A stretch of DNA of 64,000 nucleotides from a bacterium (GCA_028716385.1 JAQUPX010000001.1:282775-346774); one strand, 5' to 3'; numbered from the stretch's first letter, positions 7,200-61,822 are shown. Notes: generated by a model from the sequence alone, not told the origin. A program made the numbers and translations.

Positions 7200-7223
7200 T
7201 GAAAAATTGTTTTTATCAGGGTA

Positions 7224-7245
7224 GGCGAAAGCCCTCGCTTTCGCC
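7224..7245. other. GC-rich hairpin (GGCGAAAG-ccctcg-CTTTCGCC) after the paralog array; no T-run
   Basis: Perfect 8-bp inverted repeat read directly; a second hairpin CCGCCTCAGGCGG follows at about 7267-7283. Confidence 0.4.
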
Positions 7246-7316
7246 ATACTCAACAAATTCGAGCGAGTCCGCCTCAGGCGGATCGAACCTACCCATAAAT
7301 TAAAAAAGGAGAAAAA

Positions 7317-11017: not shown

Positions 11018-11410
11018 ATGAAAATGAAAAAACAAGAAAAAGAAATATGGGCAGGGCAAAATAGATTATGTTTCGGAGAAGACAAAATACTTTACGCAAC
11101 TCTTGTCGGGGACCTTTCTGCGGAAATAGTGAATACGTTATATGTATTTTTCGAACAAAATAAAAATGAAAATATGGTTGACGGGAAAGTAAGATTTTTT
11201 GTAGACCTTACTAATTCAGGGAAACCTTCTATGGAAGCAAGAAAATTGACTTATGCGCTGAGTGAAAGTAAAGACATCGGGAAATTTGCCATAATCGGAA
11301 TGAATCCGGTTGCAAGGGTAATAGCGGCTTTTTTTATGGGAAATTCAAGAAAGAAAGGTATGAAATTTTTCAACACAAGGGAGGAAGCGCTTGAATGGCT
11401 AAAGAAATAA
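11018..11410 (+). CDS. small STAS/SpoIIAA-like protein, tandem paralog 4 of 4
   Basis: 130 aa; same conserved motif set; 3' end overlaps the kinase start. Confidence 0.5.
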   Translation: MKMKKQEKEIWAGQNRLCFGEDKILYATLVGDLSAEIVNTLYVFFEQNKNENMVDGKVRFFVDLTNSGKPSMEARKLTYALSESKDIGKFAIIGMNPVARVIAAFFMGNSRKKGMKFFNTREEALEWLKK

Positions 11411-12747
11411 TACCGTCAGACAAATTCAAAGAAATTACCTATAACAAGGAAAACCCTTTGCGCGATGAAACAATTATTCGTCTTAATAAGATGATTGAAA
11501 TTGTTATGAACGTGGCAAAAGGAATTTACTCCGAACAGGTTCAACTCTCGGATAAAAACGATGAGATTGATGCGCTTGGGATAGGTATAAATATGATGAT
11601 TGACGATATTAAAAAAAACGTTGAAAGAATCAAAAAAGAAAAAATTAACCTCGATAAACAAGAAAAAAGAAGAACTATAGAACTTAAAGAAGAACGGAAT
11701 AAATTCCACGCTACAGCCGAAAGCATATCCGACGGTATACTCGTGATAGACTTCAAGGGGAATATTCTAATCGTTAATTCGGCATTTGAAAGGTTATTTG
11801 GCATCAAAAAAGAACAGGTAACGGGACGACACGTGCTTGATTGTCTGGAGGATGTAAAAATTTTAGACCTTATAACCCGAAAATTAACAACAGGGCATGA
11901 ATATTATACGGAAGAACTTATAATCACGGATAGGGTAACCAACACAGAAAAAATCTTAAACGGACGAATATCTTCCGTCTTCAACCAGGCCGGAAAAAAA
12001 TTGGGAGCCGTAATAGTTCTGAGGAATATCACAAAAGAAAAAGAAGCCGAGAGAATAAAAAATGAATTTGTATCAAACGTGTCTCACGAAATCAGGACGC
12101 CCCTGTCTTCCATAAAAGGTTTCGTTGATACTCTTCTTATGGTTAAAGTTTCCGAGTCCGAACGTAAAAAGTTTTTAAACATAATCAAACAGGAATCAAA
12201 CAGGTTGAACCAGCTTATTACTGATTTGCTTGACCTTTCCCGTATTGAATCCGGAAGGGTAGAGCTTAAATTTGAACCCGTTGACGTTTTTCAAAAGTTG
12301 GAAGCCGTAAAATCGGAAATTTTAGGTAAAATCTCACGGAAGAAACTTTCTTTTGAAATAAAAGTGCCGGCTTCTTTGCCGCTGATAAAAGCCGATAAAA
12401 ATGCTTTGTTCCAGATTCTTATTAATCTTGTTAGTAATGCAATTAAGTTTACGGAAAAAGAAGGAAAAATTTGCGTGAAAGCGGAACTGTGCAACAAGAA
12501 AGAATGTGTCAAATTTTCTGTCCGGGATACGGGGTATGGAATAGAAAAACAATACCTGACAAAAATATGGGAAAAATTCTACAGGATTGAAACTTCTTCG
12601 CATAAAATCCCCGGAACAGGACTCGGGTTACCTATTGTTAAAGATTTGGTAGAAAAGCATAACGGGAAAATATGGGTAAACAGTAAACCCGGAAAAGGCA
12701 GTGTTTTTTACTTTACCATACCGGTTTTTACCGAAAGGAAAAAATGA
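11395..12747 (+). CDS. cytoplasmic sensor histidine kinase (PAS + HisKA + HATPase_c)
   Basis: 450 aa; no transmembrane segment seen; PAS-like region (ATAESISDGILVIDFKGNILIVNSAFERLFG); H-box NEFVSNVSHEIRTPLSSIKGF; ATP-lid motifs (LINLVSNAIKFT, VRDTGYGI, GTGLGLPIV). Confidence 0.85.
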   Translation: MAKEIIPSDKFKEITYNKENPLRDETIIRLNKMIEIVMNVAKGIYSEQVQLSDKNDEIDALGIGINMMIDDIKKNVERIKKEKINLDKQEKRRTIELKEERNKFHATAESISDGILVIDFKGNILIVNSAFERLFGIKKEQVTGRHVLDCLEDVKILDLITRKLTTGHEYYTEELIITDRVTNTEKILNGRISSVFNQAGKKLGAVIVLRNITKEKEAERIKNEFVSNVSHEIRTPLSSIKGFVDTLLMVKVSESERKKFLNIIKQESNRLNQLITDLLDLSRIESGRVELKFEPVDVFQKLEAVKSEILGKISRKKLSFEIKVPASLPLIKADKNALFQILINLVSNAIKFTEKEGKICVKAELCNKKECVKFSVRDTGYGIEKQYLTKIWEKFYRIETSSHKIPGTGLGLPIVKDLVEKHNGKIWVNSKPGKGSVFYFTIPVFTERKK

Positions 12748-13130: not shown

Positions 13131-13544
13131 TCCGCTTCCCTGTCCTATTTTCCTAATAACTAATACCCTATTAACGGATTCTCCCGCACGGGGTGTGCCA
13201 ATTTTATCTTTTCTCTGTGCACTCTCTGTCTTCGGAGTTTACCCCGCATTTTGCGGGGTAGTTTTAATCTGTATTCTGTTTTTTGTTGTTTACACTATAA
13301 ATTTCTTTTCTCTGTGCTCTCTGTGGTTAGACTTTCGTGGCGATGTTCTTTTTTTCCTTGCAAAAACGAAACTATAGTATATTCTGAAAACTAACAATTA
13401 TAAGATACAAATAGAAAATAGTAACTGGTAGTCCCGCTAGCGGGATAGCAATCTCTAATGACTAACATCAAAGAGCTTGCTATAATTTAAGGAGTAATTG
13501 GTTGTAACTGAAAAAAAGAATAACCGTAACTAATAGGAGGAAAG

Positions 13545-15725: not shown

Positions 15726-15746
15726 TAATTTATTCGTAATATCGTA

Positions 15747-15906: not shown

Positions 15907-16530
15907 TCAATCTTTATTTTGAGGGGTCTTTTTTTTCAAATTATGGAAATTAAATCTAATGCTTCCGTAACGCATAGAGTAACTTTCTTCTTCCAGATGA
16001 ATTGGAATCACATCAATTTCTCCTAACAACTCCAGCCAATAAGTAAGGGAGAAACTGGCTCCACAAGCTATAAGCGGATAGCTATACGAGAAAAAAGATT
16101 CGGAATTTCCGGGGGGAACTACGTTTGTCATAATATTATATCTACAAGCAATATATGGGGTTGCGAAATCAATTCTTTTACTAAGATATGCCGTAGCTTC
16201 AAGATTAGCGGCGCCTAAGAAGTTGAATCCAAGCCCGCCTCCGATAGAGAAAGTAACGGGGTCTTTAATTAACCTGGCTTTGAGGCATCCGATCATTCCA
16301 AAGTTAGACACGCGTAGTTCGGAATCAAGATTATCTGCAACGCCTAGTTTAAGGTATAAATTAGAATTATAAAGATACGTAGGGTCATAAGGAACGTTTA
16401 CTAAAGTGCTAATTCCCGCTTCTATTTTATGCGGCGGCAAGGTTTCGCCCGTATCAACTATGGAAGTGGTACAGCCGGACAATAATATTACGGACAAGGG
16501 TAATATTTTCAACAGTATTCGTTTTCGCAT
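15907..16530 (-). CDS. putative lipoprotein / outer-membrane hypothetical protein
   Basis: 207 aa; N-terminal MRKRILLKILPLSVILLSGCTT (signal plus lipobox-like Cys). Confidence 0.5.
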   Translation of the reverse strand: MRKRILLKILPLSVILLSGCTTSIVDTGETLPPHKIEAGISTLVNVPYDPTYLYNSNLYLKLGVADNLDSELRVSNFGMIGCLKARLIKDPVTFSIGGGLGFNFLGAANLEATAYLSKRIDFATPYIACRYNIMTNVVPPGNSESFFSYSYPLIACGASFSLTYWLELLGEIDVIPIHLEEESYSMRYGSIRFNFHNLKKKTPQNKD

Positions 16531-16559
16531 TTTTCAGTATCTTTTTCCTATATAAAATG

Positions 16560-17100
16560 ATTAGTATGTTTTGTCAAGATTTAAGAGTTTTTGGTAGCCG
16601 CAAGCTTTAGCTTGCGCAACTATTTCAAAATGTTAACATATTGACTTAGTAGTAACAGATTTAAGAGTTTTTGGTAGCCGCAAGCTTTAGCTTGCGCAAC
16701 TCTGCCTTTCCCTCTGCTTCCGCGTCCCGTGCATCTTGTCTCTTACAGTCCCTGTTGAAATTCTCTGTTTTTTCGTGTCCTTTTTTCGTAGTAAGTTTTT
16801 CTGTTTCTGTTCTTTTTATCTCTTACAAGTCTTAACAAGTAACAGATTTAAGAGTTTTTGGTAGCCGCAAGCTTTTTACCCTGAGCGTAGTCGAAGGATA
16901 GCTTGCGCAACTATTTCAAAATGTTAACATATTGACTTAGTAGTAACAGATTTAAGGGTTTTTGGTAGCCGCAAGCTTTAGCTTGCGCAACTCTGCCTTT
17001 CCCTTTGCTCTCTCCCCATCTTCGCGTCCCGTGCATCTTGTCTCTTACAGTCCCTGTTGAAATTCTCTGTTTTTTCGTGTTTAGCTGGCGTTTTCTGTTA
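16560..17100. repeat. tandemly duplicated ~290-bp intergenic unit with four copies of a ~45-bp hairpin element
   Basis: (a)GATTTAAGAGTTTTTGGTAGCCGCAAGCTTtAGCTTGCGCAACT at about 16585, 16660, 16855, 16945; flanking TTGACT-containing and CTCTTACAGTCCCTGTTGAAATTCT segments also repeated; the 16855 copy carries a ~22-nt insertion (TTACCCTGAGCGTAGTCGAAGG) in its loop. Confidence 0.6.
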
Positions 17101-17108
17101 CTAACTTT

Positions 17109-18596
17109 TTACTTCACAACTACTATTTTCGATGTGCAGTTTTGTCCGCAAGCGGACAGTCTTGCGAGGTATACGCCGGAGGTAAACCCTGTCGGCGTCC
17201 ATTCTAATGTATATTCACCGGGAACCTTATTTGTGTTTAAAAGAGTTTTAACCAATTCGCCTGCAGTGTTATATATCCTTAAACATACATCGGAATTTTT
17301 TGGTATGGAGTATCTGAAAAGTAATTTGTGGTTAGAGAGTTGTGCATATAATCTAGGCGTTTCCCGAGAATAAACTTTTTCCTGAACACCGGCTATACAT
17401 CCTCCATCCAGGACTTTCAAAATTCCTGTTCCTCCGATTACCACTTCCAATTGCCCGTCCCCGTCTACGTCTCCGATTGAAGGGTCGCTGTCTCCGGCAG
17501 AACTATTGCCAAATTCCCATAGAAGAGTTCCGTCATTATTGAGTCCGCGTATTATTGTATCGTTAGAGGCAAATACTATTTCGGGTTTATCGTCACTGTC
17601 CAAATCGCCAATCGCAGGGCATGACCATATGTGACTTCCCGTTGCATAACTCCAGAGCACTGAGCCATCTTCACCGTTGAGAGCGTAAAAGTTGAAATCA
17701 TCGGAGCCAAATACTATTTCAGGTTTAGTGTCGTTATCCAAATCTGCAATCGCAGGGGAAGAGCGTACGGAACCTCCTGTCGTCGTGTAGCTCCAAAGTA
17801 AAGAACCGTCTTCTCCGTTGAGAGCGTAGAAATCGAATGAGCCGACAACTATCTCGAGTTTAGTATCGTTATCCAAATCTGCAATCGCCGGGGAAGCGCT
17901 AACTCCTATTGGATAACTCCAGATAAGCGAACCATCTTCACCATTAAGAGCATATAATTTATTGTCGCCAAGAACTACCTCAAGTTTAGTATCGTTATCC
18001 AAATCCGCAATTGCAGGCGAAGACCATATGTAACTTCCCGTTGCATAACTCCAGAGTACTGAGCCGTCTTCACCGTTGAAAGCGTAGAACGTATAATCCA
18101 GGGAGCCAACAGCTATTTCAGGTTTACTATCGTTATCCAAATCCGCAATCGCGGGGGAAGACATTACCCGATTTCCTGTCTTATAACTCCAGAGCAGGGA
18201 GCCGTCTTCAGTATTGAGGGCATAAAGTTGGCTGTCATAGGAGCAGACAACCACCTCGAGTTTAGTGTCCCCGTCTAAATCCCCAAGTGCAGGGCAAGAG
18301 CATATTTTACCCGACGTTGTATAGCTCCATATTACTGAACCGTTTTCTCCATTGAAATTATATATTTTATTGTCTATGTCATTACCGGAAATTATTTCAG
18401 GGATGTTATCATTATTTATGTCTACAATTGCAAATTTAGCGAATCCCTCGTTAGGGGTTTGCCATTTGATTCTCATAGAATCGGAAGTTAAGCATCCTTT
18501 GAGTTCAGGTTGAAAACCAGTATTTTGCAGGTCATGATGGAATTTCAGCCATTCTCCGGGCAAGGTCAAAAGGCAAATAAGAAATATATTCAACAT
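17109..18596 (-). CDS. propeller-repeat (PQQ-like / FG-GAP-like) protein with T9SS C-terminal tail; inverted paralog of 29316-30824
   Basis: 495 aa; repeating IADLDNDTKxEVVxGSxDxxLYALNGEDGSxLWSYxTG units; C-terminal sorting tail; N- and C-terminal regions about 80-90 percent identical at nucleotide level to 29316-30824 on the other strand. Confidence 0.65.
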   Translation of the reverse strand: MLNIFLICLLTLPGEWLKFHHDLQNTGFQPELKGCLTSDSMRIKWQTPNEGFAKFAIVDINNDNIPEIISGNDIDNKIYNFNGENGSVIWSYTTSGKICSCPALGDLDGDTKLEVVVCSYDSQLYALNTEDGSLLWSYKTGNRVMSSPAIADLDNDSKPEIAVGSLDYTFYAFNGEDGSVLWSYATGSYIWSSPAIADLDNDTKLEVVLGDNKLYALNGEDGSLIWSYPIGVSASPAIADLDNDTKLEIVVGSFDFYALNGEDGSLLWSYTTTGGSVRSSPAIADLDNDTKPEIVFGSDDFNFYALNGEDGSVLWSYATGSHIWSCPAIGDLDSDDKPEIVFASNDTIIRGLNNDGTLLWEFGNSSAGDSDPSIGDVDGDGQLEVVIGGTGILKVLDGGCIAGVQEKVYSRETPRLYAQLSNHKLLFRYSIPKNSDVCLRIYNTAGELVKTLLNTNKVPGEYTLEWTPTGFTSGVYLARLSACGQNCTSKIVVVK

Positions 18597-18699
18597 TTCA
18601 TCCCTAAGATACGGCTAAACAAACACCTTGTCAATTTTTTATCTGTTATAGTCATTATAGAAAGCCCTTGAGTCCGCCTGCCCACAGTTCTTTTTGGTA

Positions 18700-18870
18700 G
18701 ACCTGCCTTTTGTCATTCTCGTGAAAACGGGAATCCATTTCGTGGTTTAGTGCTTTGCCCGTCCTTTCCTGCCCGCCGTTCCTTTTGGTAGGCCTGCCTT
18801 TTGTCATTCTCGTGAAAACGGGAATCCATTTCGTGGTTGAGTTGTCATTCTGAGTCGAAGACGAAGAATC
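18700..18870. repeat. intergenic direct repeats (two copies of TTTTGTCATTCTCGTGAAAACGGGAATCCATTTCGTGGTT plus a related GTCATTCTGAGTCGAAGACGAAGAATC unit)
   Basis: Near-identical ~80-bp blocks at about 18690-18760 and 18780-18840, read directly. Confidence 0.5.
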
Positions 18871-19221
18871 TCTTTGTTATTTTTTCGGCGATAGTCTGCG
18901 AAAATCCCTGCCTGTCCGCCTCAGGCGGAGCAGGTGCGTCCAAAAAATTGTTTTCTATTTTTCGTGGTTACTTAGAGTTTGTTCCTCTCAGGAACATTAC
19001 TCTAAGTTATCCAGCTCAGCTGGGCCTTCTTTTGTTTTTATTTGTTTGGAGTTTACCCCGCTTTGGCGGGGTGGTTAAAGCTTTTCCATTCTCTTTCTTT
19101 TGTTTTGAACTTTGCGGCTTAGCGACTTGGCGCGAGATATTCCGTTTTCTATTTCTGTTCTCTGTTTTTGTCTCTTAAAGTCTCATCCCTGCCTGCCGGC
19201 AGGCAGGAAGTCCCTGTTGAA

Positions 19222-19602
19222 CTATTTGTCTCTTTTCGTAGCAGTTTTTCTCTTAAGGAATTCGACACTCCCGGAAATGATATTAGCGAAGCCCAGAATC
19301 CATCCAATAGGGTACGGCAAAACCGTAAGCCCCCACCACCACGAATGTGCGCCGGGACCAAATCCTCCGACAGCGCTCCATCCAAACAATGCTCCGACTC
19401 CTACTGCTATCATAATAAAAATAAATCTCCAGTAACGGAACAAACTGCGCCGGTTTTTATCAAGGAACGTACCGAACAAAACCATACCGCTGGCGGGAAG
19501 GATAAGCAGAGAGCCTTCCAGGGGATCCACGATTCCGAGTATCATAAAAATACTGCCAACAACAATCATAACCCGCGACCATTTCATAATGTTAATTTCC
19601 AA
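19222..19602 (-). CDS. small multi-pass membrane protein (hypothetical)
   Basis: 126 aa with three to four hydrophobic helices (IVVGSIFMILGIV, MVLFGTFL, FIFIMIAVGVGALFGW, LTVLPYPIGWILGFANII); overlapping plus-strand ORFs have no such features. Confidence 0.4.
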   Translation of the reverse strand: MEINIMKWSRVMIVVGSIFMILGIVDPLEGSLLILPASGMVLFGTFLDKNRRSLFRYWRFIFIMIAVGVGALFGWSAVGGFGPGAHSWWWGLTVLPYPIGWILGFANIISGSVEFLKRKTATKRDK

Positions 19603-20172: not shown

Positions 20173-22224
20173 TCACCAAAAGAACAGATACCTCACCTTC
20201 GCAACGGCGACTCTATCCGTCAATTCCATATCGTCTTCGACGTTGTCTATGGTTTGGTTAAACGCCAGATACACCCACGACTTCGGTCTGAAGTTATAAG
20301 AAATAAGCGCATTAAATTTATGTATATGCGTATCGGTATTCGGCTCTGCGTATATCCTCAATTGCATATCCTTTGTAAGCGCATACTGTACGGTCGGCAG
20401 TAAAATCGAAGCTATTGCCACGCTATCATTATTCGGAGTCCATTCAAAAGTGTTTGACAGGACAAGTGAAAAACTTAAAGACGGATTGACTTTCCAGTCT
20501 ACAATAAAGTCATTCGTTCCGGTTGATGCAAAATACTTTTTCCTGTAATTAAAACCATAACTCTTATACCACACCTCTTCGTTTAAGACAAAAGCCTTGC
20601 TGAAATCGGTATATAAGCAAACGCTCAGACGGGAGTAATCATACTCCGTATTCATTTCATATCCTTTACCTTTGTAAACGTTTATGTGTCCCCCGTAATT
20701 ATTCTTAAAGCAAGGGCTGACGCGCGCGCTAATCCAATTCCCGCCCGGATTGCCGGCTTTTTGTGTTCCGCCTGCTCCCGCGCAAGCCACGAATTTACGA
20801 AAAGGTCCCTTGTTAAAAAATTGCGGTCCCGCCATAAGAGAATATATCTTGTACCCGACATACGGAGCAAACCCGATTTCCCCGACATCGAAACTTGTAT
20901 CATAATTTTCGTACCCTGCCAGCACCAGAAATTTCGGCGCATACCAATTCAGAGCTATCTCCTCCGCATACCCGCTGTCCGATTTCGCCACCTCTGCGGC
21001 ACATTGCAGTTGATGCGTTCGGAACATCCCGTCTATCCCCATTACTTTCTGGTTGTTAAAACTGCTGTCCCCGCTGACTCCCGAATAAGTAAACCCTATG
21101 TCCGAATTTTTCAGGATGCCCATTTTTATCCTTCCCACGGAGTATAAATTTCTAGGTTCAAACCAATCTTCTCCCGGCGAAATGCTGTCCGTGTACGCCG
21201 ACAACATTCCGAATTTTACTCTCCCCAGCGACCCCGTATATTTTGCCCCGCCCAAAATCGGGACTTCACCTTCGGGCAATTTTTTGCCTATCCTACGGGA
21301 ATAGAAAAGTGTTATCGGAGTGGCGAAGACTTCCTGCGATTCGATAAAAAACGGCCGTCTTTCGTCGAGATAAAGTTCGTACTCGGAAAGGTTAATCGTA
21401 TAAGGGTCTGCTTCTATTTGCGCAAAATCCGGCAGCATCGTAAGCGAAAGCTGCGACGAAGTAAACCCCCAACCGACGTCCAGTCCTGCCTGCGGGCGAA
21501 GGATTAAAGTATCTCTATCCTCAAGGGTCTTTCCCAATTCGTATCTTACAAGTCCCACGGGATAAACTTCAAGGTTCAGTCCCTGTCTGGTGTTCGGGAT
21601 TCCTTTGAGCGCTCCACTTCTGGAAACACGCATCCCTTCTACCTGTTTAAGGGGCGCCCACGATACGCTCTCGCTATTTTTTGAAATATATCTAAAGAAG
21701 TTGACGCCCCATTCATCGAGTCCTTGTTTAAACCGTAATGTTTTGAAAGGTATTTTCATTTCCGCGACATACCCGTATTTCGTAACTTTAGCCACCGAGT
21801 ACCAGACTCCGTCCCAGCTTACGTCGTCTGCTCTTCCGTCCTGGGAAATTTTTTCATCGTATTGCACGCCTGCGGCGTTCAGCATAAATTCGTAAGCAGT
21901 AGTTTTATCGCCAAAAGTATCGAATATAATTCCGACGTTATCTTCGTTATAGAAATAATCTCTCGGCACTTTTTTAATATTTAAGCTTTTCGGGTCGGCG
22001 TCAAAACACTTAAATGCGATATAAATATTTTTATCATCGCAACAGATGTAGACTTTAGTGGATTCGGAAGGAGACGCTCCCTCGTCCGGGTCACTCTGGA
22101 CGAAGTTTTGAACGGAGTCTGCGTTCTGCCAGACCGAGTCAATTTTTCCGTCAATAACCGGCGGAGTGGTAACTTTCGGTATGTTTACGACACTTCCAAG
22201 GCTTAAAAAAAGTAATAGCAACAT
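20173..22224 (-). CDS. predicted outer-membrane protein: N-terminal CBM9/DOMON-like domain plus C-terminal beta-rich region (DUF5916-like)
   Basis: 683 aa; signal-like N-terminus; DGKIDSVWQNA...IYIAFKCFD...DxVxIxFDTFxDxxTAYxF motif block; ends in aromatic ...RYLFFW as in many outer-membrane barrels. Confidence 0.5.
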   Translation of the reverse strand: MLLLLFLSLGSVVNIPKVTTPPVIDGKIDSVWQNADSVQNFVQSDPDEGASPSESTKVYICCDDKNIYIAFKCFDADPKSLNIKKVPRDYFYNEDNVGIIFDTFGDKTTAYEFMLNAAGVQYDEKISQDGRADDVSWDGVWYSVAKVTKYGYVAEMKIPFKTLRFKQGLDEWGVNFFRYISKNSESVSWAPLKQVEGMRVSRSGALKGIPNTRQGLNLEVYPVGLVRYELGKTLEDRDTLILRPQAGLDVGWGFTSSQLSLTMLPDFAQIEADPYTINLSEYELYLDERRPFFIESQEVFATPITLFYSRRIGKKLPEGEVPILGGAKYTGSLGRVKFGMLSAYTDSISPGEDWFEPRNLYSVGRIKMGILKNSDIGFTYSGVSGDSSFNNQKVMGIDGMFRTHQLQCAAEVAKSDSGYAEEIALNWYAPKFLVLAGYENYDTSFDVGEIGFAPYVGYKIYSLMAGPQFFNKGPFRKFVACAGAGGTQKAGNPGGNWISARVSPCFKNNYGGHINVYKGKGYEMNTEYDYSRLSVCLYTDFSKAFVLNEEVWYKSYGFNYRKKYFASTGTNDFIVDWKVNPSLSFSLVLSNTFEWTPNNDSVAIASILLPTVQYALTKDMQLRIYAEPNTDTHIHKFNALISYNFRPKSWVYLAFNQTIDNVEDDMELTDRVAVAKVRYLFFW

Positions 22225-22314: not shown

Positions 22315-24177
22315 TTAGGTCTTCTCACTCAGTTGATTAAGCATTTTTTCCTGTGAAATTTTTACGGCCGCCATTTTTTCCCTTAATGCTGAATGTAGAT
22401 GGCTCCATGTTTCAAAATCACACTCTTCTCTAAGTTCACATTCATTACATCTAAAACATCTTGGGAGTTTTAGCCCGCTAAAAAAGTTGTATTCAATATT
22501 TTTAATAATTTTTTCTACTAATTGTTGCGAATAGAAAATCTCAAGTTTTTCTTTTGCCATTTTAGTATTATAATTCTTAAGCTTTTTTAAAACCAAATAA
22601 TCTCTTATCGCTGAAAAATAAGTAATTTCTTCCTCGTTGTTTTTTATATTTCCGGACGATAGTATATTAATAAATTTTTGCAATTCATATATCGCTTTTT
22701 TATATGAACCGGTAACTAAATGCAAAAACGAAAGTAGTAAAACAGGATTTATTCTGCTCCATTGAGAATCCCATTTACGCAAAGGGAGCCATGTAAAAGG
22801 GAGGATATTATTTATTTTATAGGGAGTCTTATATACGCTGTTGTTAACCAGTTCTTTGATTTCTTTGAATTCATCAATTTTTCTTTTATCTAAATCTATA
22901 AATAAATTATTTTTTTCTATTTTTTCTTTATGTAATTCTAACTCCTTCCATGAAGCTCTTCTGGAGTTAGTCCCCGGTACAATAACTTGATAACTTGGAA
23001 ATCCCAAAAAAGATACATCTCTTATAAATATAGGTCCTTTTGTTGCTCTATGTAATATATTACACATACGTTGATAGTGTAGTTTATTGTTAAATTTGTT
23101 ATTTGTGTTTGCCGACAAAGTACTATTATAAGATGGTTTTCCAAAGAAAAAACTGTTTGGATAAGCACCGTCATTCGTTTTTAGCAAGTTAAAAAAGTTG
23201 TTAGACCATCCGCCATTATTAATTTTTTGTTCGAATAATAAATCTTTTAAGTTTACTTTCGTTCCGCTTTTGTAGTCCAAAATATGTCTACCTTGAAATG
23301 TTTCTGTAATGGCGCGGGAAATAGCCTCATCTATATTAGGATGCGACCCAAAATTTACATGGTAGCTGCCTTTCCTTTTATCGTGCGCTATGACAGCAAC
23401 AACAGGCAACGCCATATTTAGAGAACAATCTTTAATTGAAATATGGAAATTACTATTTTTTTCTATTTCCTCAATCATAATCTTTAAGTGTGGGGAACGA
23501 GATATACAACTTTTGTTTAATTCCGGGGGAGTTAATTGCTTGTGGTAAATAACATCCATACAGTGCCTTTCACTTACTTCGCTCATCCCTTGCACCAATG
23601 CTTCGTAAATATTATTCCCGGCGCACATCCCCGTAGAACCATAATGATACCTTATCATCTCCAATGGCAAAAAAACAATTTTTCCGCTAATCACATCCGC
23701 AAATGGAATGCATAGCAATTTTCCTTCGTATGAAAAAAAATCCAGCCATTTTTCGGCATCCCCTTTCTGTCTGTCACACGGAGCAAAATTTCTTAACAAA
23801 TTCTTGTCGACAGACTTAACAAATTGGCGCGGTGTTAAAAATATTTCATCCGGGGAATAAATAAAATCAGAAATCTTATGCAGTGTTTTATAGTTTAATA
23901 TAAAACTATTATGATTTGCGGTGTTGAATTGATTTTGTATTCTTTCCATTAGTTCCGCATAAGCGCTGGCAAGCGCCGCTTCTTTTGACATCCCCTTCCC
24001 GTTTGAACCAATAAAACTATCATTAAAACTAATGCGTACCGAATATAAAGAATCTCCATTCTTATACCACCTGTCTTCATTAATCAAAACTCCTATTTTG
24101 TAAAAAATGTTTCTTATACGAGTTATAGTTTCTATGGGTTTTACATCTTTATATAAAACTGTCTGAACCTTTTCCAT
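22315..24177 (-). CDS. ycaO: YcaO-domain protein, full-length E. coli YcaO-type
   Basis: 620 aa; SVRISFNDSFIGSNGKGMSKEAALASAYAELMERIQNQF matches the YcaO ATP-binding core (GKG...AxxSAxxExxER); further blocks YHYGSTGMCAGNNIYEALVQGMSEVSERH and FGSHPNIDEAISRAITETFQGR line up with E. coli YcaO along its length. Confidence 0.85.
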   Translation of the reverse strand: MEKVQTVLYKDVKPIETITRIRNIFYKIGVLINEDRWYKNGDSLYSVRISFNDSFIGSNGKGMSKEAALASAYAELMERIQNQFNTANHNSFILNYKTLHKISDFIYSPDEIFLTPRQFVKSVDKNLLRNFAPCDRQKGDAEKWLDFFSYEGKLLCIPFADVISGKIVFLPLEMIRYHYGSTGMCAGNNIYEALVQGMSEVSERHCMDVIYHKQLTPPELNKSCISRSPHLKIMIEEIEKNSNFHISIKDCSLNMALPVVAVIAHDKRKGSYHVNFGSHPNIDEAISRAITETFQGRHILDYKSGTKVNLKDLLFEQKINNGGWSNNFFNLLKTNDGAYPNSFFFGKPSYNSTLSANTNNKFNNKLHYQRMCNILHRATKGPIFIRDVSFLGFPSYQVIVPGTNSRRASWKELELHKEKIEKNNLFIDLDKRKIDEFKEIKELVNNSVYKTPYKINNILPFTWLPLRKWDSQWSRINPVLLLSFLHLVTGSYKKAIYELQKFINILSSGNIKNNEEEITYFSAIRDYLVLKKLKNYNTKMAKEKLEIFYSQQLVEKIIKNIEYNFFSGLKLPRCFRCNECELREECDFETWSHLHSALREKMAAVKISQEKMLNQLSEKT

Positions 24178-24224: not shown

Positions 24225-24651
24225 TTTAATCTCTCCAATCTATTACCAACCCTTGATTTATCTAGGGATGGTTATCCAGCTCTGCTGGAAAATCTCCAAT
24301 CCAAAATCCAAAATCTATTACTTGCCTGCCCCGTACATTTATTGCACAGGGGCGCTCACTTGGTAGCCGCAAGCTTTAGCTTGCGCCTGTCCACCTTTTG
24401 TTTTGGCGGAAAGCGGGGAAGAATCTCGTTTTTCCCCTTCGCCCTTTGCTCTTCTCGCTCCTCCGTATCTCCCCAATTCGCATTCCAAAATCTTTTTTTT
24501 CAGTATCTTTTAATTCCCCAATTCCTTCTTTTAATCCGTTCAATCCCCAATCCCTGCCTACCGGTCAGGCAGGCAAAATCTAAAATCTATTACCAGCCCT
24601 TGAGTTATCTAGGGATGGTTATCCAGCTCCGCTGTGGCTGGAAAATCCGCC
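24225..24651. repeat. repeat-rich intergenic region containing remnants of T9SS-linker coding sequence
   Basis: Two copies of CTATTACCxxCCCTTGAxTTATCTAGGGATGGTTATCCAGCTCxGCTG (about 24235-24290 and 24585-24640); AATCCAAAATCCAAAATC and CCCTGCCTACCGGTCAGGCAGGCAAAATC blocks match coding sequence at 33585-33625; GGTAGCCGCAAGCTTTAGCTTGCGC hairpin at about 24360. Confidence 0.45.
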
Positions 24652-26370
24652 CTATCCCTCGTTTTCTATTGTTTGAAATAAATGCTGGTATAAGATATTC
24701 GTTTGTATCAATTCTCTGTGCGTCCCCGATGTAACAAAATTCCCCTTATCAAGAACTATCGTCCTGTCCGCTAAAAGCATCGTTTCTTTTGAATGACTGA
24801 TAACTATCGTTATTCTGTCGTCTTTGCCGTCTATTAAAACATTATGTATCGCTTTAATGTTGTTCGCATCAAGTCCTGCCGTGGCCTCATCCAACAGCAA
24901 TACGTCCGGTTTTTTTAGAAAAGCCCGCGCTATCGCCAGCCTCTGTTTTTGCCCGCCACTCAGATTTCCACCGCTTTCATTAAGTTTATGATTCAACCCG
25001 TCTTCTAATTGATTAATGAATTCCATTGCCTGGGCCCTTTTTAGAACAGTATCAATTTCTTCATCGGTTGAATTTAACTTGCCCATAGAAATGTTCTCTT
25101 TTATCGTTGCTAAAAATAAAAAAGGCGCCTGTTGCACTATTGCTATTTTATTCCGATACGAATCCAGGGATATTGAATTGATGTTAATGCCGTTTGCGCT
25201 TATCTCACCTTTCTCCGGCATATATACCCGCTGCAATAACTTAAATATCGTCGTTTTCCCCGCCCCGCTTTCCCCTACTAATGCTATGATTTCACCTTTC
25301 TTTGCGCTGAAAGAAACATTCTTAAGACCAAAATCATCCTTTTCGGAATATGAAAAACAAACTTCTTTAACGTTGAGCGTTTCTATGCTTTCAATATCAA
25401 TGCCTTCTTTCTTCTCCTGCTCTATAGAGAATAATTCCTGCACTCTTTTTATACAACTTTTCCCCGTTTGAAGAGATATGTTAAGATTCGTTAACCCGGA
25501 CGTTGAACTGAATACTTGCACCATAAGCATATTAAACGCAAAGAAACTGCCAAAAGTAAGCTCCCCTTTAATTATCAGGTATCCCCCCAGCCATATTAAT
25601 ACGACCTTCCCCAGGGTCGAACTTAGTTGCCCCAGCACAGATGGCTTGCAGGAATATACGAACCGTTCAATTGCAATATTAAACAACTCTGTTAATTTTT
25701 TAGCATACCTGCTTATAATTTCTTTTTCTGCTCCTAAATATTTTATTTCCAGACGCCCGGAAATGATTTCGTTCAAATAAAAAGTATTATTTGCTTTCTT
25801 CTCCAGCATTTTTATCGTTCTCTGGTTCATCCCGCGATTAAATAGCTTTAAAGAAATGGCAAAAATCGGGAGTATACTGAAAAACACTAAAGATAACGTA
25901 AGATTAAACTTCGCAATGATTATCACGCTAACTACAAGCGTAATCGCATCTTTTGTTAAATTTAACATATCGTCTATAAAAAACGTATTAACTCCTTCCA
26001 AATCTCCCTCTATTCGTCCCGTAAGATATCCCGACCCTTTTTGAGATAATTCTTTCCAGTTGGAATTAATAATTCGTCCCAATAATATTGACTTTAAATA
26101 GTTCCCGAAACCATACTTCAGGCAATTTGCCATATAAGTATCAAAAATGCTTATCCCTATAAGGCAAACTTGAGCAGCCAATATCGCAATAGCCCATTTT
26201 GTTAAAAGAAGATAGTCTTTAGAAGGCAAAACAATATCAAGGATATGTTTTGTCAGGAGCGGAATTATAACGACTAAAGCGACTTTCAATATGTTCCCAA
26301 CAACAATAAGTAGTGATGATGAAAAAGCAATCCCAAAAAAATATTTACCTGCTAATTTTCTTACTTTCAT
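24652..26370 (-). CDS. ABC exporter, fused permease-ATPase (no N-terminal C39 peptidase domain)
   Basis: 572 aa; N-terminal half with multiple hydrophobic helices; Walker A GESGAGKTT, signature LSGGQKQRLAIARAF, Walker B VLLLDEATAGLD; start overlaps the rSAM stop by 4 nt. Confidence 0.85.
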   Translation of the reverse strand: MKVRKLAGKYFFGIAFSSSLLIVVGNILKVALVVIIPLLTKHILDIVLPSKDYLLLTKWAIAILAAQVCLIGISIFDTYMANCLKYGFGNYLKSILLGRIINSNWKELSQKGSGYLTGRIEGDLEGVNTFFIDDMLNLTKDAITLVVSVIIIAKFNLTLSLVFFSILPIFAISLKLFNRGMNQRTIKMLEKKANNTFYLNEIISGRLEIKYLGAEKEIISRYAKKLTELFNIAIERFVYSCKPSVLGQLSSTLGKVVLIWLGGYLIIKGELTFGSFFAFNMLMVQVFSSTSGLTNLNISLQTGKSCIKRVQELFSIEQEKKEGIDIESIETLNVKEVCFSYSEKDDFGLKNVSFSAKKGEIIALVGESGAGKTTIFKLLQRVYMPEKGEISANGININSISLDSYRNKIAIVQQAPFLFLATIKENISMGKLNSTDEEIDTVLKRAQAMEFINQLEDGLNHKLNESGGNLSGGQKQRLAIARAFLKKPDVLLLDEATAGLDANNIKAIHNVLIDGKDDRITIVISHSKETMLLADRTIVLDKGNFVTSGTHRELIQTNILYQHLFQTIENEG

Positions 26371-27731
26371 AGTTTGTCCTTATAGATGAGTTTCATTATC
26401 CCACACTGGTATTCATCCGGAGTATATAAATTGCCGTTTGCCAATAAAGCAGCCCCCGGACACATTTTACAATAATTCTTTATACTACATATATTACACG
26501 TTTTCAAATCGTCTACTTTAATATTATGATGCATTCTTATTTCATCACTTCCCCATATCTCATCTATTGATTTGTTTCTAATGTTTTGACTCCCGTACCT
26601 CAATGTTGCACACGGGAAAACGTTCCCCTTAGCATCTATTGCAAAACTATAAGCTCCGGAATAACAATTTGCTGAATTTGGCCCCCTAATATCCTCTTCT
26701 TGTTGCAAACTCTCTCTTCCCACTTTGTTAATTAACCAATCAATCTGTGATAAAGAACAGAAAACATTTTGATTCATATTTCTATACAATCCTTTTCTCA
26801 TTTGGGTAATGTCGTAAGTATATCTTAAACCATAAGATGCGCATAATTTTTCCATTGCGGGAATCTGCCGGTAATTCATCGCCAAAACTGGGGTTTTAAT
26901 ACGGATGCGCATATTAGTTTTAGAAAGTATGGGAAGTAAAGTTTTTATATGCTCTGAGGCAGTTACTCCGCAAATCTCTTTATAAGTTTTTTCATTAGCT
27001 CCCAAAACGCTAATTTCTAACTTGTATACCCCAAGAGATTCCAAATGTTTTATAAGAGCCTTATTCAATAAATACCCATTTGTAAAAACTACTACTGCAA
27101 AATTTCTATCTATTGCCATCTTTATAATATTAAGAAAATCTTTTCTTATAAGAGGTTCTCCCCCTGAAATTGTAACTCTTAAACACTTTTTTTCTTTGAG
27201 CCAATTTAATATCTCTATAATTTCATTTAGTGAAAGGTCTTCGGATGTTTTTGATTTTTTACTTGGTATTTTGTTATAGCAATGTATACATTGGAAATTG
27301 CACATAGATGAAACCTCTATAAATGCCGACATAGGAAGTTTTTCTCCGGCATATAATCTACGTATTTTCTTAGAATCTAATATCTGCTTAGCATTAAATA
27401 GTTTTTCATTTTTGTTTGATTGGGATTTCATTATTTGTTCTTTATCAACAAACAAAATACTTTCGGCATTTAACCAATTTATTATTAATTTTATATTATC
27501 AACAATAAACTTGTGCGATATAATTATTTTCTTTTTATACGCTAAAGAAATTATATTTTTTTCAATCTTATTCTTGCTATTACCTTTTAAAAAAGAGTAT
27601 ACTATTAGTGCCCCAATTCCATTTATAAGGCTATAGCTATCTGTTTTTTTATTAAAAACAATTGCTTGATTTAGATTTTTAAAATATCTACAAATAAAAA
27701 TCTTATTTAATCTCGACATTTTTAGTCCCAT
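26367..27731 (-). CDS. radical SAM enzyme with C-terminal SPASM domain and ~130-aa N-terminal extension (possible peptide-recognition, RRE/PqqD-like)
   Basis: 454 aa; CNFQCIHC (CxxxCxxC) cluster; glycine-rich SAM motif VTISGGEP; C-terminal Cys cluster CNICSIKNYCKMCPG typical of SPASM; N-terminal region before the rSAM core is a small alpha/beta unit. Confidence 0.8.
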   Translation of the reverse strand: MGLKMSRLNKIFICRYFKNLNQAIVFNKKTDSYSLINGIGALIVYSFLKGNSKNKIEKNIISLAYKKKIIISHKFIVDNIKLIINWLNAESILFVDKEQIMKSQSNKNEKLFNAKQILDSKKIRRLYAGEKLPMSAFIEVSSMCNFQCIHCYNKIPSKKSKTSEDLSLNEIIEILNWLKEKKCLRVTISGGEPLIRKDFLNIIKMAIDRNFAVVVFTNGYLLNKALIKHLESLGVYKLEISVLGANEKTYKEICGVTASEHIKTLLPILSKTNMRIRIKTPVLAMNYRQIPAMEKLCASYGLRYTYDITQMRKGLYRNMNQNVFCSLSQIDWLINKVGRESLQQEEDIRGPNSANCYSGAYSFAIDAKGNVFPCATLRYGSQNIRNKSIDEIWGSDEIRMHHNIKVDDLKTCNICSIKNYCKMCPGAALLANGNLYTPDEYQCGIMKLIYKDKL

Positions 27732-27819: not shown

Positions 27820-27963
27820 TTACATAAGGACCATTGTACAATTATCCGTCATGTCAGTTTCATCTTCATTCAATCTACTAGGCCCTATACGTCTTGCTAA
27901 TTTCCCTGGTGTTGTCCCAGCCTCAATAGTTACGGTACTTTCAATTTTTGTTAGTTCAAACAT
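27820..27963 (-). CDS. unannotated 47-aa ORF, candidate precursor peptide
   Basis: Minus-strand ATG at 27963 with AAGGAGGTGA 8 nt upstream; translation MFELTKIESTVTIEAGTTPGKLARRIGPSRLNEDETDMTDNCTMVLM; stop TAA at 27820-27822; sits directly 5' of the rSAM-ABC operon on the same strand; below the 60-aa track cutoff. Confidence 0.35.
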   Translation of the reverse strand: MFELTKIESTVTIEAGTTPGKLARRIGPSRLNEDETDMTDNCTMVLM

Positions 27964-27990
27964 TTTTTCATCACCTCCTTTTTCACATAG

Positions 27991-28073
27991 CAATCACTTT
28001 AAATGTATGTCAAGAGAATTGCAAGAAAAAATCCTAGTAAAATATTAGGATTTCTAGTAAAATATTAGTATCC
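27991..28073 (-). promoter_or_regulatory. promoter/operator module with tandem direct repeats (CTAGTAAAATATTAG x2), -35-like TTGACA and a TTTAAAGT box
   Basis: Minus-strand reading: TTTTACTAGAAATCCTAATATTTTACTAGGATTTTTTCTTGCAATTCTCTTGACATACATTTAAAGTGATTGC, just upstream of the RBS of the small ORF; about 80 percent identical to 61715-61794. Confidence 0.45.
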
Positions 28074-31548: not shown

Positions 31549-31697
31549 ATCCCCCTCCTTTTTTACCCGGCTCAGCTACAAACTCTTGGATACAATCCTT
31601 AGAGTTTGTTGTCCAGCTCAGCTGTGGCCGTGGCTTTTTTTATTTTGCTTTCTGTTTTGTCATTGTCATCCCGCACTTGATGCGGGATCCATTGTTT

Positions 31698-33345: not shown

Positions 33346-34407
33346 TCATTTTATTAGTACCAGTTTCTTTGTCTCTTTAAAATTATTAGTTGTCACCCTC
33401 ACAAAATACACCCCATTCTTTTTCACATTCGGAGTAAACACATAATCCCCTTTGCTTAATGCGCCATTGTAAATAACCTCTTTCGTTCTCCCACACAAAT
33501 CGTAAATTTTCAATTCCGCATTTATACTTTTAGGCACATCCAAATAAATCTTATTTTTTCTTATCTGTAAATCCGCATTCCCCAATCCCTGCCTACCGGT
33601 CAGGCAGGCAAAATCCAAAATCGATGGGTCTTCTATCCCTGCACCGGCATCATAAACTGCTATTGTTGCCCTGCCGCTATCATCCCATGCTATTGCTTCG
33701 CTGGGCGACGAAGCGGAAATCTCTCCCCCGGCTCTAAAGTATACATTTGAAATACCTGAGAAAACGTAATGAGACGCAAGATTTGTGAAGTATAAATCAA
33801 GAGGATAGAGAGTGGAAAGCCCTACGTTCATATTAAATGCATTAGCCACGGGAGCTATGTTCTGATTAGGACAATATGCATTTTCAGACATTATTAAAAT
33901 TCCACCTGTTTTTAAGAGCCAGTTGAATGCATTTAAAGCGAAAGCTTTGTTATCTGCAGAATCAATATACTCACTGTCACAGAAATTACAGTCCCCGACT
34001 AACAATACGCGCCCGTTTTTTCTTTTAATATATTGAGCAAGAGAATCTACTTCAGAGGGTTGATAAAAACTATCCCAGGCACATGCGGAATTAATTACTA
34101 TAACATCGTAACCCGATAGATTCATAAAACCTATACCTGTGTCAACGACATCTATGCAATAATCATTAGAATCTAAAAGAGCAGTTAATCTGCTATACCC
34201 TCCGGAAGGAAGGTAGTAGTTACTGTATATTCCGTGCGTAGTATCCCACAGAACTGAGTATGTTGCCGTTTTCCCCTTTTTTTGTAATGATGGTTTTTGG
34301 GATTCATTCGTAGTATTAATTATTCTTCCTGTAGTAGCATCGTACTGAGCATAAGTCAGGTTACAAAATACAATTATTCCTGCAAAGACAAGCCGAATTT
34401 TTCTCAT
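33346..34407 (-). CDS. secreted hypothetical protein with T9SS C-terminal tail, duplicate A
   Basis: 353 aa; signal-like N-terminus; first ~270 codons about 98 percent identical at nucleotide level to 37724-38797. Confidence 0.55.
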   Translation of the reverse strand: MRKIRLVFAGIIVFCNLTYAQYDATTGRIINTTNESQKPSLQKKGKTATYSVLWDTTHGIYSNYYLPSGGYSRLTALLDSNDYCIDVVDTGIGFMNLSGYDVIVINSACAWDSFYQPSEVDSLAQYIKRKNGRVLLVGDCNFCDSEYIDSADNKAFALNAFNWLLKTGGILIMSENAYCPNQNIAPVANAFNMNVGLSTLYPLDLYFTNLASHYVFSGISNVYFRAGGEISASSPSEAIAWDDSGRATIAVYDAGAGIEDPSILDFACLTGRQGLGNADLQIRKNKIYLDVPKSINAELKIYDLCGRTKEVIYNGALSKGDYVFTPNVKKNGVYFVRVTTNNFKETKKLVLIK

Positions 34408-45618: not shown

Positions 45619-45724
45619 ATTGCCCCCCTATTTCAGTGGGTAGTTGGGAGCACGTGCTCCCAACGCTACCCTGTGTTTTCATTCTGTCATTGTCATCCCG
45701 CACTTGATGCGGGATCCATTGTTT

Positions 45725-46900
45725 TCATTTTATTAGTACCATTTTCTTCGTTTCTTTAAAATTATTAGTTGTCAGCCTCACAAAATACACCCCGCTCTTT
45801 TTTATATTGGGCGTAAATGTATAATCCCCTTTGCTTAGTAGACCTTGATAAACAGTGCTTTGAAGTCTTCCACATAAATCATAAATTTTCAATTCCGTAT
45901 TTATACTCTTTGGCGCGCTCAAATAAATCTTGCCCTTTATTATCTGTAAATCCGCATTCCCCAATCCGAAATCCAAAATCAAAGGTTCTTCCACTCCCGA
46001 TTTTGAGTTAATGAATTTTAATATCCACTTTCCCGTAGTGTCGGGAACATTATATAAATATAACTCGGAAGAATCCGGTGTCAAACTTAGCCCTGACACA
46101 AACCCTATTCCACTAAATTCCGGCATCGCTTCAGGTGTAGAAAAAGTGTCTCCTATCGAACCTCTTTTTGCGTAGTAAATAATACCGGCTCTAAAATAAA
46201 TTTCCAGTTCATTATTTGTCAGGAAACAAGAAAAGTTATTAGTGCCGGGAAAATTAATTTTAAGGGACTCTTTAGCTCCGAATAAAGAATCTCTATTGCT
46301 TCTGGAAGCCATATATAAATAAACCCCCTGAGAATCCTCCTGCGCAAAATAAAGATGTAATCCGTTTGGTGAAATCCATGGGTAAGCGTCTGCCGTATCG
46401 GTAATATTTATCTCGCTTAGCGGGCGCAAACTATCAAAAGGGTCCGTTAAAGAATTCCTTACGGCAATCCATAAATCATTGTTGTCCCAGTTATTGTCCC
46501 AGCTTTTCGTAAATACCATTATTTTCCCGTCTTCCGTAATTGTGGGCTGGCTATTCGAGAAAGTATCCACATCATTAATATTCCCGGGCAATTTTGTCAG
46601 ACTTAATGAATCAAACTCTTCCTTAAGATTATTGCGGGACATAACATACAATCTATAGTTACCCGTGCTATCCGCAATGCTTGCATAATATTTCAGTCCG
46701 TCTTTTGAGAGCTGTCCCGGTCCGGGTATAAGATTCTGCGGAACTATAAGCGTATCCTTTAAAATAAAAGTTGTATCCGAGAAAAAAGCCGTTTTTGTAT
46801 TATTCTTTGTCTGGAGAATCCGCAGATTCCCGTCCTGTTTCCTTTCAACGTTTCCCTGCGTTAACGCAAGAACAAACCCCATCAAAATCGCATAAATCAT
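45725..46900 (-). CDS. secreted protein with T9SS C-terminal tail (start set at MIYAIL...)
   Basis: Track ORF reaches 46939, but ATG at 46900 has AAGGAGAG 5 nt upstream and begins a signal-like MIYAILMGFVLALTQG; C-terminal sorting tail. Confidence 0.55.
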   Translation of the reverse strand: MIYAILMGFVLALTQGNVERKQDGNLRILQTKNNTKTAFFSDTTFILKDTLIVPQNLIPGPGQLSKDGLKYYASIADSTGNYRLYVMSRNNLKEEFDSLSLTKLPGNINDVDTFSNSQPTITEDGKIMVFTKSWDNNWDNNDLWIAVRNSLTDPFDSLRPLSEINITDTADAYPWISPNGLHLYFAQEDSQGVYLYMASRSNRDSLFGAKESLKINFPGTNNFSCFLTNNELEIYFRAGIIYYAKRGSIGDTFSTPEAMPEFSGIGFVSGLSLTPDSSELYLYNVPDTTGKWILKFINSKSGVEEPLILDFGLGNADLQIIKGKIYLSAPKSINTELKIYDLCGRLQSTVYQGLLSKGDYTFTPNIKKSGVYFVRLTTNNFKETKKMVLIK

Positions 46901-46984
46901 ATTCTCTCCTTTATTAACCGGTATGTCGGTTAATAACACCCATCAACAACAAAAGTCAAACATTTTAATTTGTACGATGCAAGC

Positions 46985-61794: not shown

Positions 61795-61822
61795 ATTTTT
61801 AGTTGGAGTTTCCGGCCTTGGC

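Follow-up and report, generated by a model that had tools for sequence, protein, structure and literature searches.

The intergenic DNA of a 64,000-nt stretch of a bacterial metagenome-assembled genome (MAG; GCA_028716385.1 JAQUPX010000001.1:282775-346774), called the window here, has probably been colonised by palindromes of the repetitive extragenic palindromic (REP) type. These comprise GTAG-tagged elements, CGTC/SRM elements and hairpin units upstream of genes, and they would have been amplified locally by duplication, by spread with gene ends and by small insertions. The window has a GC content of 40%, its genes lie on the plus strand as far as ~15.7 kb and then nearly all on the minus strand, and many of them encode cargo of the type IX secretion system (T9SS; Por_Secre_tail). 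The host is an unclassified MAG, and the abundance of T9SS cargo genes suggests the FCB group. Two relatives, L066 and L067, encode proteins 88% and 85% identical to the DUF5916 protein of the window (20173..22224), and the repeat vocabulary of the window recurs in their tandem arrays; more distant named homologues of this protein come from candidate division WOR-3, Stahlbacteria and Edwardsbacteria.

Perfect GC-rich hairpins (stem of at least 7 bp, at least 5 of them GC) number 19 in the 6,956 intergenic nt, against 0.24 +/- 0.47 expected from dinucleotide shuffles, and 5 in 57 kb of coding DNA; 19 of 24 are thus extragenic in a window that is 11% intergenic. A second copy within the window exists for 25% of intergenic bases, and for 84% of those within 16531-17108. 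An earlier note on this DNA had called the intergenic regions AT-rich, which their GC content (38.3%, vs 39.7% in coding sequence) does not bear out. The motifs that it had picked out were nevertheless all found at or near the places it gave:

7269, 18916 and, on the minus strand, 33211: CCGCCTCAGGCGG (family A)
9156 and 13433, in inverted orientation with a 28-nt identical flank: CCCGCTAGCGGG (family B)
24553 and 33588 (exact), 8199 and 19188 (variants): CCTGCCTACCGGTCAGGCAGG
19049 and 13235: GAGTTTACCCCGC...GCGGGG
45646 and 5907: GGGAGCACGTGCTCC[C/T] (family E)
19007, 24272, 24619 and 31609, with a weaker match at 9176: TTATCCAGCTCAGCTGG-type
18712, 18803, 31665, 33313 and 45692: GTCAT...ATCCAT type
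16597, 16677, 16968 and 24366, with a split copy at 16860-16908: GCCGCAAGCTTTAGCTTGCGC

For CCTGCCTACCGGTCAGGCAGG, the site at 33588 and the variant sites stand, but the copy placed at 24541 lies 12 nt away, at 24553. The tandem copies of the GCCGCAAGC hairpin are likewise present, but the copy at 24366 had been overlooked. The division into distinct families survives only in part. Families A, B and E and the GCCGCAAGC hairpin share a single GGTAG tag, by which we place them in one GTAG-REP superfamily; the GTCAT type falls, by its architecture, in the CGTC/NTS/SRM class; the upstream-region hairpins do stand apart. Flanks are conserved, as had been claimed, but some of that conservation comes from gene 3' ends or tandem duplicates.

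The GTAG elements consist of a (G)GGTAG tag followed directly by a GC-rich stem-loop of 6-9 bp, with varied stems. GGGTAG is eight times denser in intergenic DNA (1.58/kb) than in coding DNA (0.19/kb), and a palindrome directly follows most intergenic GGTAG sites, including those at 7220, 7289 (minus strand), 13427, 15836, 45639/45666, 54125 and 61673 (minus strand) and in the copies of the hairpin we call H. GTAG also precedes the hairpins at 55153 and 15744, and the tagged hairpin at 61652-61677 (minus strand) stands immediately before the ribosome-binding site of a gene for a 2117-amino-acid protein. Besides H, the palindromes include:

7219..7294, plus strand: doublet of two different hairpins within GGGTAGG...CCTACCC, GTAG tags outward (DNA fold z = -5.9)
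13427..13462, plus strand: family B, GGTAG-TCCCGC-TA-GCGGGA plus ATAGCAATCTCTAAT
18904..18935, plus strand: family A nested palindrome, CCTGC..TCCGCC-TCA-GGCGGA..GCAGG
19049..19075, plus strand: GAGTTTACC-tagged hairpin CCCCGC-TTTG-GCGGGG, with a sister copy at 13235-13260
45638..45671, plus strand: family E, GGGTAG-TTGGGAGC-ACGT-GCTCCCAA-CG-CTACCC (GGGAGCACGTGCTCCC), tags on both sides (z = -5.0)

The second hairpin of the doublet is the CCGCCTCAGGCGG core, tagged with GGTAG at 7289 on the minus strand, and the only doublet-like GTAG elements of the window are 7219-7294 and 45638-45671. The inverted copy of family B (9141-9168) has a degenerate tag, GGTCT, and both B copies are oriented like the downstream gene. 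Family E has an intragenic relative at 5897-5930 and a half copy at ~30860-30892, and the GAGTTTACC-tagged hairpin has an orthologous copy in L066 at 11661-11687.

A link to a known mobile system comes from H, of which the window has five copies:

16593..16617, plus strand: H copy 1, GGTAG-CCGCAAGC-TTTA-GCTTGCG-C
16673..16697, plus strand: H copy 2
16860..16908, plus strand: H copy 3, with the TTTA loop interrupted
16964..16988, plus strand: H copy 4
24362..24386, plus strand: H copy 5, an independent locus with unrelated flanks

H folds at -7.6 kcal/mol (z = -2.6). Sixty-three stretches of species-representative genomes from many phyla contain its exact 25-mer, GGTAGCCGCAAGCTTTAGCTTGCGC, which is multi-copy in several MAGs; record titles give the hosts as Gammaproteobacteria, Coxiellaceae, Thermodesulfobacteriota, Firestonebacteria, Omnitrophota, Fimbriimonadia, Zixibacteria, Ignavibacteriales, Chlorobiaceae, Calditrichota, Elusimicrobia, Spirochaetes and others. 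Outside the window it usually lies within 0-60 nt of an inverted partner, CGCAGGCTAAAGCCTGCGGCTACC, forming doublets. The variable triplet of the stem is perfectly complementary in 112 of 126 instances of the H family, with five distinct types, and the loop is TTTA in 106 of them. L003 has an IS200-like tyrosine transposase gene (Pfam Y1_Tnp, E = 4.7e-10) with H-family clusters on either side, and in L037 (Ignavibacteriales) a homologue of that transposase, 49% identical, is ~160 nt from an H doublet on the upstream side, the side examined. That H belongs, at the level of sequence, to a REP family associated with genes like those for REP-associated tyrosine transposases (RAYTs) is well supported. 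Small open reading frames at 16911-17036 and 24339-24488 (both minus strand) are spurious translations of the H REP and give peptides with 'AQAKACGYQ'.

The second class is that of the GTCAT...ATCCAT hairpins. CGTC REPs have been described as having a CGTC or TGTC tag, an AT-initiated stem of 8-9 bp, a 4-5 nt loop and a CCA tail (Di Nocera 2013, PMC3733652), and the GIY-YIG nuclease SsnA binds and cuts the Neisseria version of the Ssn-related motif (SRM) in its single-stranded DNA form (Chenal et al. 2025, PMC11893778). The published SRM pattern, HGTCWY N0-2 YYVSBRH N0-5 WNVSBRG N0-2 RNCYNB (PMC11893778), matches the 64 kb at 18711, 18802, 31664, 33312 and 45691 and nowhere else, against 0.19 +/- 0.48 matches in shuffles. 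All five matches are intergenic and on the plus strand, and have a TGTC tag, an 8-bp stem starting with AT, a loop of 4-5 nt and a CCA tail, in the forms TGTC-ATCCCGCA-CTTGA-TGCGGGAT-CCA and TGTC-ATTCTCGT-GAAA-ACGGGAAT-CCA. On this likeness we assign them to the CGTC/NTS/SRM class:

18711..18738, plus strand: CGTC/SRM-type REP TGTCATTCTCGTGAAAACGGGAATCCAT, with a second copy at 18802-18829
31664..31692, plus strand: CGTC/SRM-type REP in a 3' untranslated region (UTR), with identical copies at 33312-33340 and 45691-45719
18843..18872, plus strand: CGTC-like hairpin TGTCATTCTGAGTCGAAGACGAAGAATCTC, outside the strict SRM pattern

The copies at 31664, 33312 and 45691 carry on from ~90 nt of C-terminal coding sequence that is nearly identical in three T9SS paralogs; because of this contiguity we take them to have spread with gene ends, by paralogy or conversion, and not by separate insertion. 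The other two lie inside a 91-bp tandem duplication. The CGTC-like hairpin TGTCATTCTGAGTCGAAGACGAAGAATCTC is present in at least eight copies in ~59-nt tandem arrays of L067 (12949-13397). The T9SS paralogs themselves (31698-33131, 33346-34407 and 45725-46939, also 37724.. and 43370..) have a near-identical C-terminal domain and 3' UTR and unrelated N-termini, a pattern suggesting that the linker ahead of the domain is a place of cassette exchange or gene conversion; small palindromes sit in this linker (DFG[L/F]..) too.

The focal clusters contain two tandem duplications, listed here with a promoter-like site:

16577..16778, plus strand: tandem unit 1, consisting of H, a 35-nt spacer, H and a T/C-rich tail
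16844..17080, plus strand: tandem unit 2, aligned to unit 1
18677..18842, plus strand: 91-bp tandem duplication (93% identity), the unit being CCTGCCC..TTTTGGTAG[A/G]CCTGCC and then a CGTC-type hairpin
16550..16578, minus strand: promoter-like TTGACA-17-TATATA for the gene at 15907..16530, by direct reading

The duplication of about 290 bp that had been noted at 16.6-17.1 kb is borne out: its length is 291 bp, and the two units differ by three substitutions, an 11-nt indel and a 24-nt insert placed precisely at the hairpin loop, with no other differences. That at 18.68-18.84 kb is 91 bp. The 45-nt direct repeats at 16577-16701 have a CRISPR-like look, but they are a duplication within the tandem unit and show no spacer diversity. 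RNA folding of the entire region 16560-17108 is marginal (z = -1.9). The promoter-like site at 16550-16578 sits in a 39-nt module common to 9237-9275, and a second promoter-like site lies at 18634-18606, so that each focal cluster lies after a stop codon and ahead of the promoter of the following gene. This is the usual position of REP clusters. The lineage-specific module CTCTTACAGTCCCTGTTGAA had no match in the metagenome scan.

Filled and empty sites show that some palindromes of 20-30 nt did insert: one is found in the loop of a REP, one lies in frame within a coding sequence and one splits another repeat module. They are listed here with a further match to the loop insert:

16875..16898, plus strand: 24-nt insert TTTACCCTGAGCGTAGTCGAAGGA in the H loop, the left arm and loop of a widespread palindromic module; a clean indel
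33588..33608, plus strand: 21-nt palindrome CCTGCCTACCGGTCAGGCAGG in frame in the coding sequence 33346..34407, adding ACLTGRQ
19183..19212, plus strand: 30-nt insert with the 20-nt palindrome CCTGCCTGCCGGCAGGCAGG, splitting the module GTCTCTTA[C/A]AGTC|CCTGTTGAA, with AAGTC flanks
34671..34693, plus strand: identical to the loop insert at 22 of 23 positions, inside coding sequence 34415..36040, in the linker that precedes the T9SS C-terminal domain

The earlier note had proposed the nested insertion in the H loop, and the filled site AGCTT-TTTACCCTGAGCGTAGTCGAAGGA-TAGCT can be set against four empty H copies in the window and 63 empty stretches elsewhere. The empty site for the coding insert is the paralog 45725..46939 (DFGLGN vs DF-ACLTGRQ-GLGN), and those for the module filled at 19170-19221 are its copies at 16738-16764, 17040-17066 and 20003-20029. 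The recurrence of the loop insert in coding sequence 34415..36040, with one mismatch, was also correctly seen, but we do not count 34671-34693 as an insertion, as the linkers of the paralogs are similar in length and show no clear gain. Target-site duplications are absent at 16875-16898 and 33588-33608, and AAGTC repeats flank 19183-19212. The proposal of REP- or MITE-like elements (MITEs being miniature inverted-repeat transposable elements) holds as REP for most families and fails as MITE: the repeats are single palindromes, and none is a unit bounded by terminal inverted repeats with a fixed target-site duplication.

The full form of the module in the H loop is GGAGTTTACCCTGAGC-GTAGTCGAAGG-GCTCAGGGTAAACTCC, of which the window holds the left arm and loop only. 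Its exact 23-mer core, TTTACCCTGAGCGTAGTCGAAGG, occurs in at least 120 metagenome contigs with 117 unique flank pairs, and conservation falls sharply at either end of it; L066 has four tandem 25-nt copies at 12006-12103. In L176 (1230-1305) the 3' end of a HEARO (IsrB omega) RNA is interrupted by a palindromic element of 74 nt that includes the 23-mer, and the homologous HEARO of L158 (2640-2660) is intact and lacks the element. Elsewhere the core abuts or overlaps by 1-2 nt the ends of tRNA genes, as at L130 4286-4308 (tRNA-Ala starts at 4307), L142 8209-8231 (tRNA-Arg starts at 8232) and L131 547-569 (a minus-strand tRNA-Arg ends at 569). No recurrent protein family was found next to the 23-mer among the neighbours examined, and the notion that it always sits in the loop of a host hairpin was rejected, as its flanks pair over at least 4 bp in 14.5% of cases against 11% in mismatched controls. 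It is possible, though less likely than not, that the module represents a distinct and still active class of ultra-short, non-autonomous single-strand hairpin elements, or a process of templated insertion, with a preference for sites beside or within structured DNA in many phyla. As a separate observation, in L005, L023, L024 and L059 (Gammaproteobacteria RBG_16_37_9) the inverted partner of H holds a nested hairpin, GTTTACCCCGTTATGTTTCTAAACGGGGT, in its TAAA loop; by sequence this is a second independent case, in another phylum, of a loop in this REP family that holds a GTTTAC-tagged hairpin.

GTAG-tagged REPs and REPINs are reportedly mobilised by RAYTs, according to work by Nunvar in 2010 and by Bertels and Rainey in 2011. 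The GTAG elements of the window would be, or would formerly have been, moved in trans, in the form of single-stranded DNA hairpins, by a RAYT (an HUH/Y1 transposase) encoded elsewhere in the genome, and a GIY-YIG Ssn nuclease, also encoded elsewhere, would bind and cut the CGTC/SRM elements in single-stranded DNA form. Copy number would then have risen locally by tandem duplication of the 291-bp and 91-bp units, by spread of a gene 3'-end cassette (the T9SS C-terminal domain with its 3' UTR) and by true insertion of the 20-30 nt palindromes. Lying after a stop codon and before the following promoter, the clusters would be co-transcribed as 3' UTR hairpins, and repeat clusters may act as hot spots of recombination and rearrangement.

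The elements can be compared with several known systems. Like GTAG REPs with RAYTs (PMC3733652), the window has imperfect palindromes of 20-40 nt directly after an unpaired GTAG tag, enriched in extragenic DNA, in clusters repeated in tandem with flanking DNA and with occasional in-frame intragenic copies, and its H sequence is identical to the REPs beside the RAYT-like genes of L003 and L037. Unlike them, its copies are mostly single and in one orientation, many stems share one tag, and no RAYT is encoded in the 64 kb. The host, from an uncultured T9SS lineage, is also outside the groups for which GTAG repeats are listed, which are only Proteobacteria, Cyanobacteria, Chloroflexi and the PVC group (Di Nocera et al. 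2013, PMC3733652). With the Neisseria dRS3/NTS and SRM elements (PMC3733652, PMC11893778) the CGTC/SRM hairpins share the [C/T]GTC tag, the AT-initiated 8-bp stem, the 4-5 nt loop, the CCA tail, a fixed orientation and a mosaic intergenic setting among other repeats; they differ in that no ssn gene was found in the window, that three of the five copies sit on a duplicated gene 3' end and that the related hairpin at 18843-18872 is off-pattern. The organisation recalls the bacterial interspersed mosaic elements (BIMEs) of E. coli and the large mosaic intergenic regions of Neisseria, with few short modules expanded in tandem between co-directional genes, but the modules are others and include lineage-specific T/C-rich filler and the upstream-region hairpins. 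The small in-frame palindrome (21 nt, 7 amino acids, 33588-33608) resembles Rickettsia palindromic elements and intragenic REPs; it is far shorter than RPE-1 and lies in the linker before a T9SS C-terminal domain.

Several observations weigh against colonisation by REP-type elements. Neither the window nor the 37 kb from L066 and L067 yielded a Y1_Tnp (RAYT) gene, and no GIY-YIG (Ssn) candidate came from a six-frame motif scan, a listing of small intergenic open reading frames and Pfam on selected genes of the window, or from the same 37 kb of the relatives, so that a cognate enzyme in the host is assumed. (A weak tblastn match of a RAYT query at 3236-3453 is antisense to a real gene and has no Y1_Tnp domain by Pfam.) The H copies of the window are same-orientation singles in a tandem cluster, unlike the inverted doublets of REPINs, and, as four of the five come from local duplication, they amount to just two independent insertions. 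The GTAG-tagged stems are unusually diverse for one RAYT, the insert in the H loop is half of the full module, for which template switching is at least as good an explanation as transposition, and for the upstream hairpins and T/C-rich filler modules no counterpart was found in the REP literature consulted. The survey itself covers 64 kb of the genome.

The upstream-region hairpins allow a rival reading. We regard them, from their sequences, as a third, separate family that is lineage-specific and locked in orientation. On the sense strand a unit consists of CCAGC-N-GCTGG (or CAGAAACACTG), ATAAG, a stem of 7-10 bp, an inner part that varies and in many cases is a GC hairpin or is made of complete units in turn, then the closing stem and CTAA:

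18972..19023, minus strand: unit CCAGC-TGA-GCTGG, ATAAC, TTAGAGT..inner hairpin..ACTCTAAG (DNA fold -17.3 kcal/mol, z = -7.1)
61795..61930, minus strand: array of upstream units ahead of the gene for the 2117-amino-acid protein
33132-33253, 9076-9192, 24237-24288, 24584-24641 and 31575-31630: similar arrays of upstream units

These units could be functional structured 5'-leader RNAs, or small RNAs, that regulate genes for secreted proteins, and not selfish repeats. All 13 pattern matches, from the window, L066 and L067 together, are oriented like the downstream gene; their stems covary (TTGGAGT/ACTCCAA, AAACTCT/AGAGTTT, TTAGAGT/ACTCTAA and CAGTCTCT/AGAGACTG), and two variants appear to pair as RNA, with G-U, and not as DNA; two copies end directly at the ribosome-binding site CTAAGGGGGAAAGATG; and the motif is restricted to the lineage, with one spurious match in 1.1 Mb of unrelated loci. 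Against this, the number of units per site varies from 1 to 5, units are nested in the loops of others, the arrays at 18972-19023 and 61795-61930 are upstream of the predicted promoter, a copy in L066 (15507-15523) is antisense to the flanking genes, and the units match no Rfam family. A regulatory RNA is less likely than not as an account of them, the alternative being another oriented repeat. A search of the whole window against Rfam 15, with gathering and E-value thresholds, gave only a chance-level miRNA match (E = 0.73), a tRNA scan of the window found no tRNA gene, and a hammerhead-like CUGAGCG...CGAAGG was ruled out on inspection because its core positions do not fit.

It is less probable still that the hairpins at large are ordinary cis-acting elements of transcripts, terminators or 3'-end stabilisers that arose in place, their repetition reflecting convergent selection and gene duplication instead of mobility. 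The majority of clusters are 3' of genes and upstream of the next promoter, and three copies have demonstrably spread with gene 3' ends; E. coli REPs are known to have an mRNA-stabilising role (PMC3733652), which counts in the same direction. However, the repeat hairpins lack T-runs, and T-run terminators exist beside them at 55216-55244 (minus strand), 61989-62016 (minus strand) and 15744-15788 (plus strand), so the plain terminators that the earlier note had set against its own proposal are separate structures. The unpaired tags (GGTAG; TGTC...CCA) are conserved, exact 23-25-mers recur in unrelated phyla and unrelated contexts, and there are an in-frame coding copy and a clean loop insertion. 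That the tandem array and its nested insert are artefacts of long-read MAG assembly is very improbable: no independent assembly spans 16607-17108, but every region covered by Logan contigs is 100% identical to the window, the insert sequence is also found in relatives and many metagenomes, and the relatives have similar tandem arrays.

These independent short-read Logan contigs, from two runs, end at 16588, 16606, 18997, 24266, 24551 and 28064, each within a repeat module; the first two ends are those of L188 and L189, beside or inside H copy 1. The breaking of two short-read assemblies at repeats suggests that the repeats have multiple genomic copies. L066 lacks the segment at ~15.9-20.1 kb between the tail-fibre-like and DUF5916 genes and has repeat mosaics at the junctions, which would be compatible with the repeats as sites of rearrangement. 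Set against window 15900-20170, ~4 kb with four genes are missing from L066 11582-12390, where the DUF5916 gene is followed by an 810-bp repeat mosaic and then the tail-fibre-like (Peptidase_S74) gene. In L067 a gene for a 120-amino-acid membrane protein lies 48 nt after DUF5916, a distance that is 570 nt in the window.

Other features of the window deserve mention. A cluster at 22315-28000 (minus strand) resembles those for ribosomally synthesised and post-translationally modified peptides, with YcaO (22315..24177), an ABC transporter (24652..26370), a radical SAM/SPASM protein (26367..27731) and a small precursor-like open reading frame (27820..27993) that is annotated in L002 as a 47-amino-acid gene; its transporter and radical SAM neighbours are retained in L066 and L067. 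At 9377-13130 an array of ~128-amino-acid paralogous small genes surrounds a PAS histidine kinase (11395..12747), and a 64-nt repeat with 95% identity joins 10151-10214 and 10941-11004 within it. A 45-nt module with two direct repeats of CTAGTAAAATATTAG occurs at 28019-28071 and 61744-61788 (95.6% identity between sites), upstream of two minus-strand genes or operons, and looks like a shared operator or transcription-factor site. An intergenic 53-nt module at 52665-52717 and 54166-54218 (94% identity), upstream of two minus-strand genes and with TTGACA on the minus strand, is probably a shared promoter region.

What is new here is the cross-phylum 23-mer module and the upstream-region hairpin family; the rest is mostly of known kinds. 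For the host, the repeats account for the breaks of short-read assemblies in these intergenic regions. The clean filled and empty pairs show that palindromes of 20-30 nt can enter hairpin loops and, in frame, coding sequence. Wherever the H REP occurs it would give the same false protein calls, and annotators of small open reading frames should be wary of peptides with '...AQAKACGYQ...'. A single REP sequence, 25 of 25 nt, is common to many phyla, and the transposases associated with it have diverged to 49% identity. GTAG- and CGTC/SRM-type REPs would extend to an uncultured T9SS lineage, in which both superfamilies are found together.

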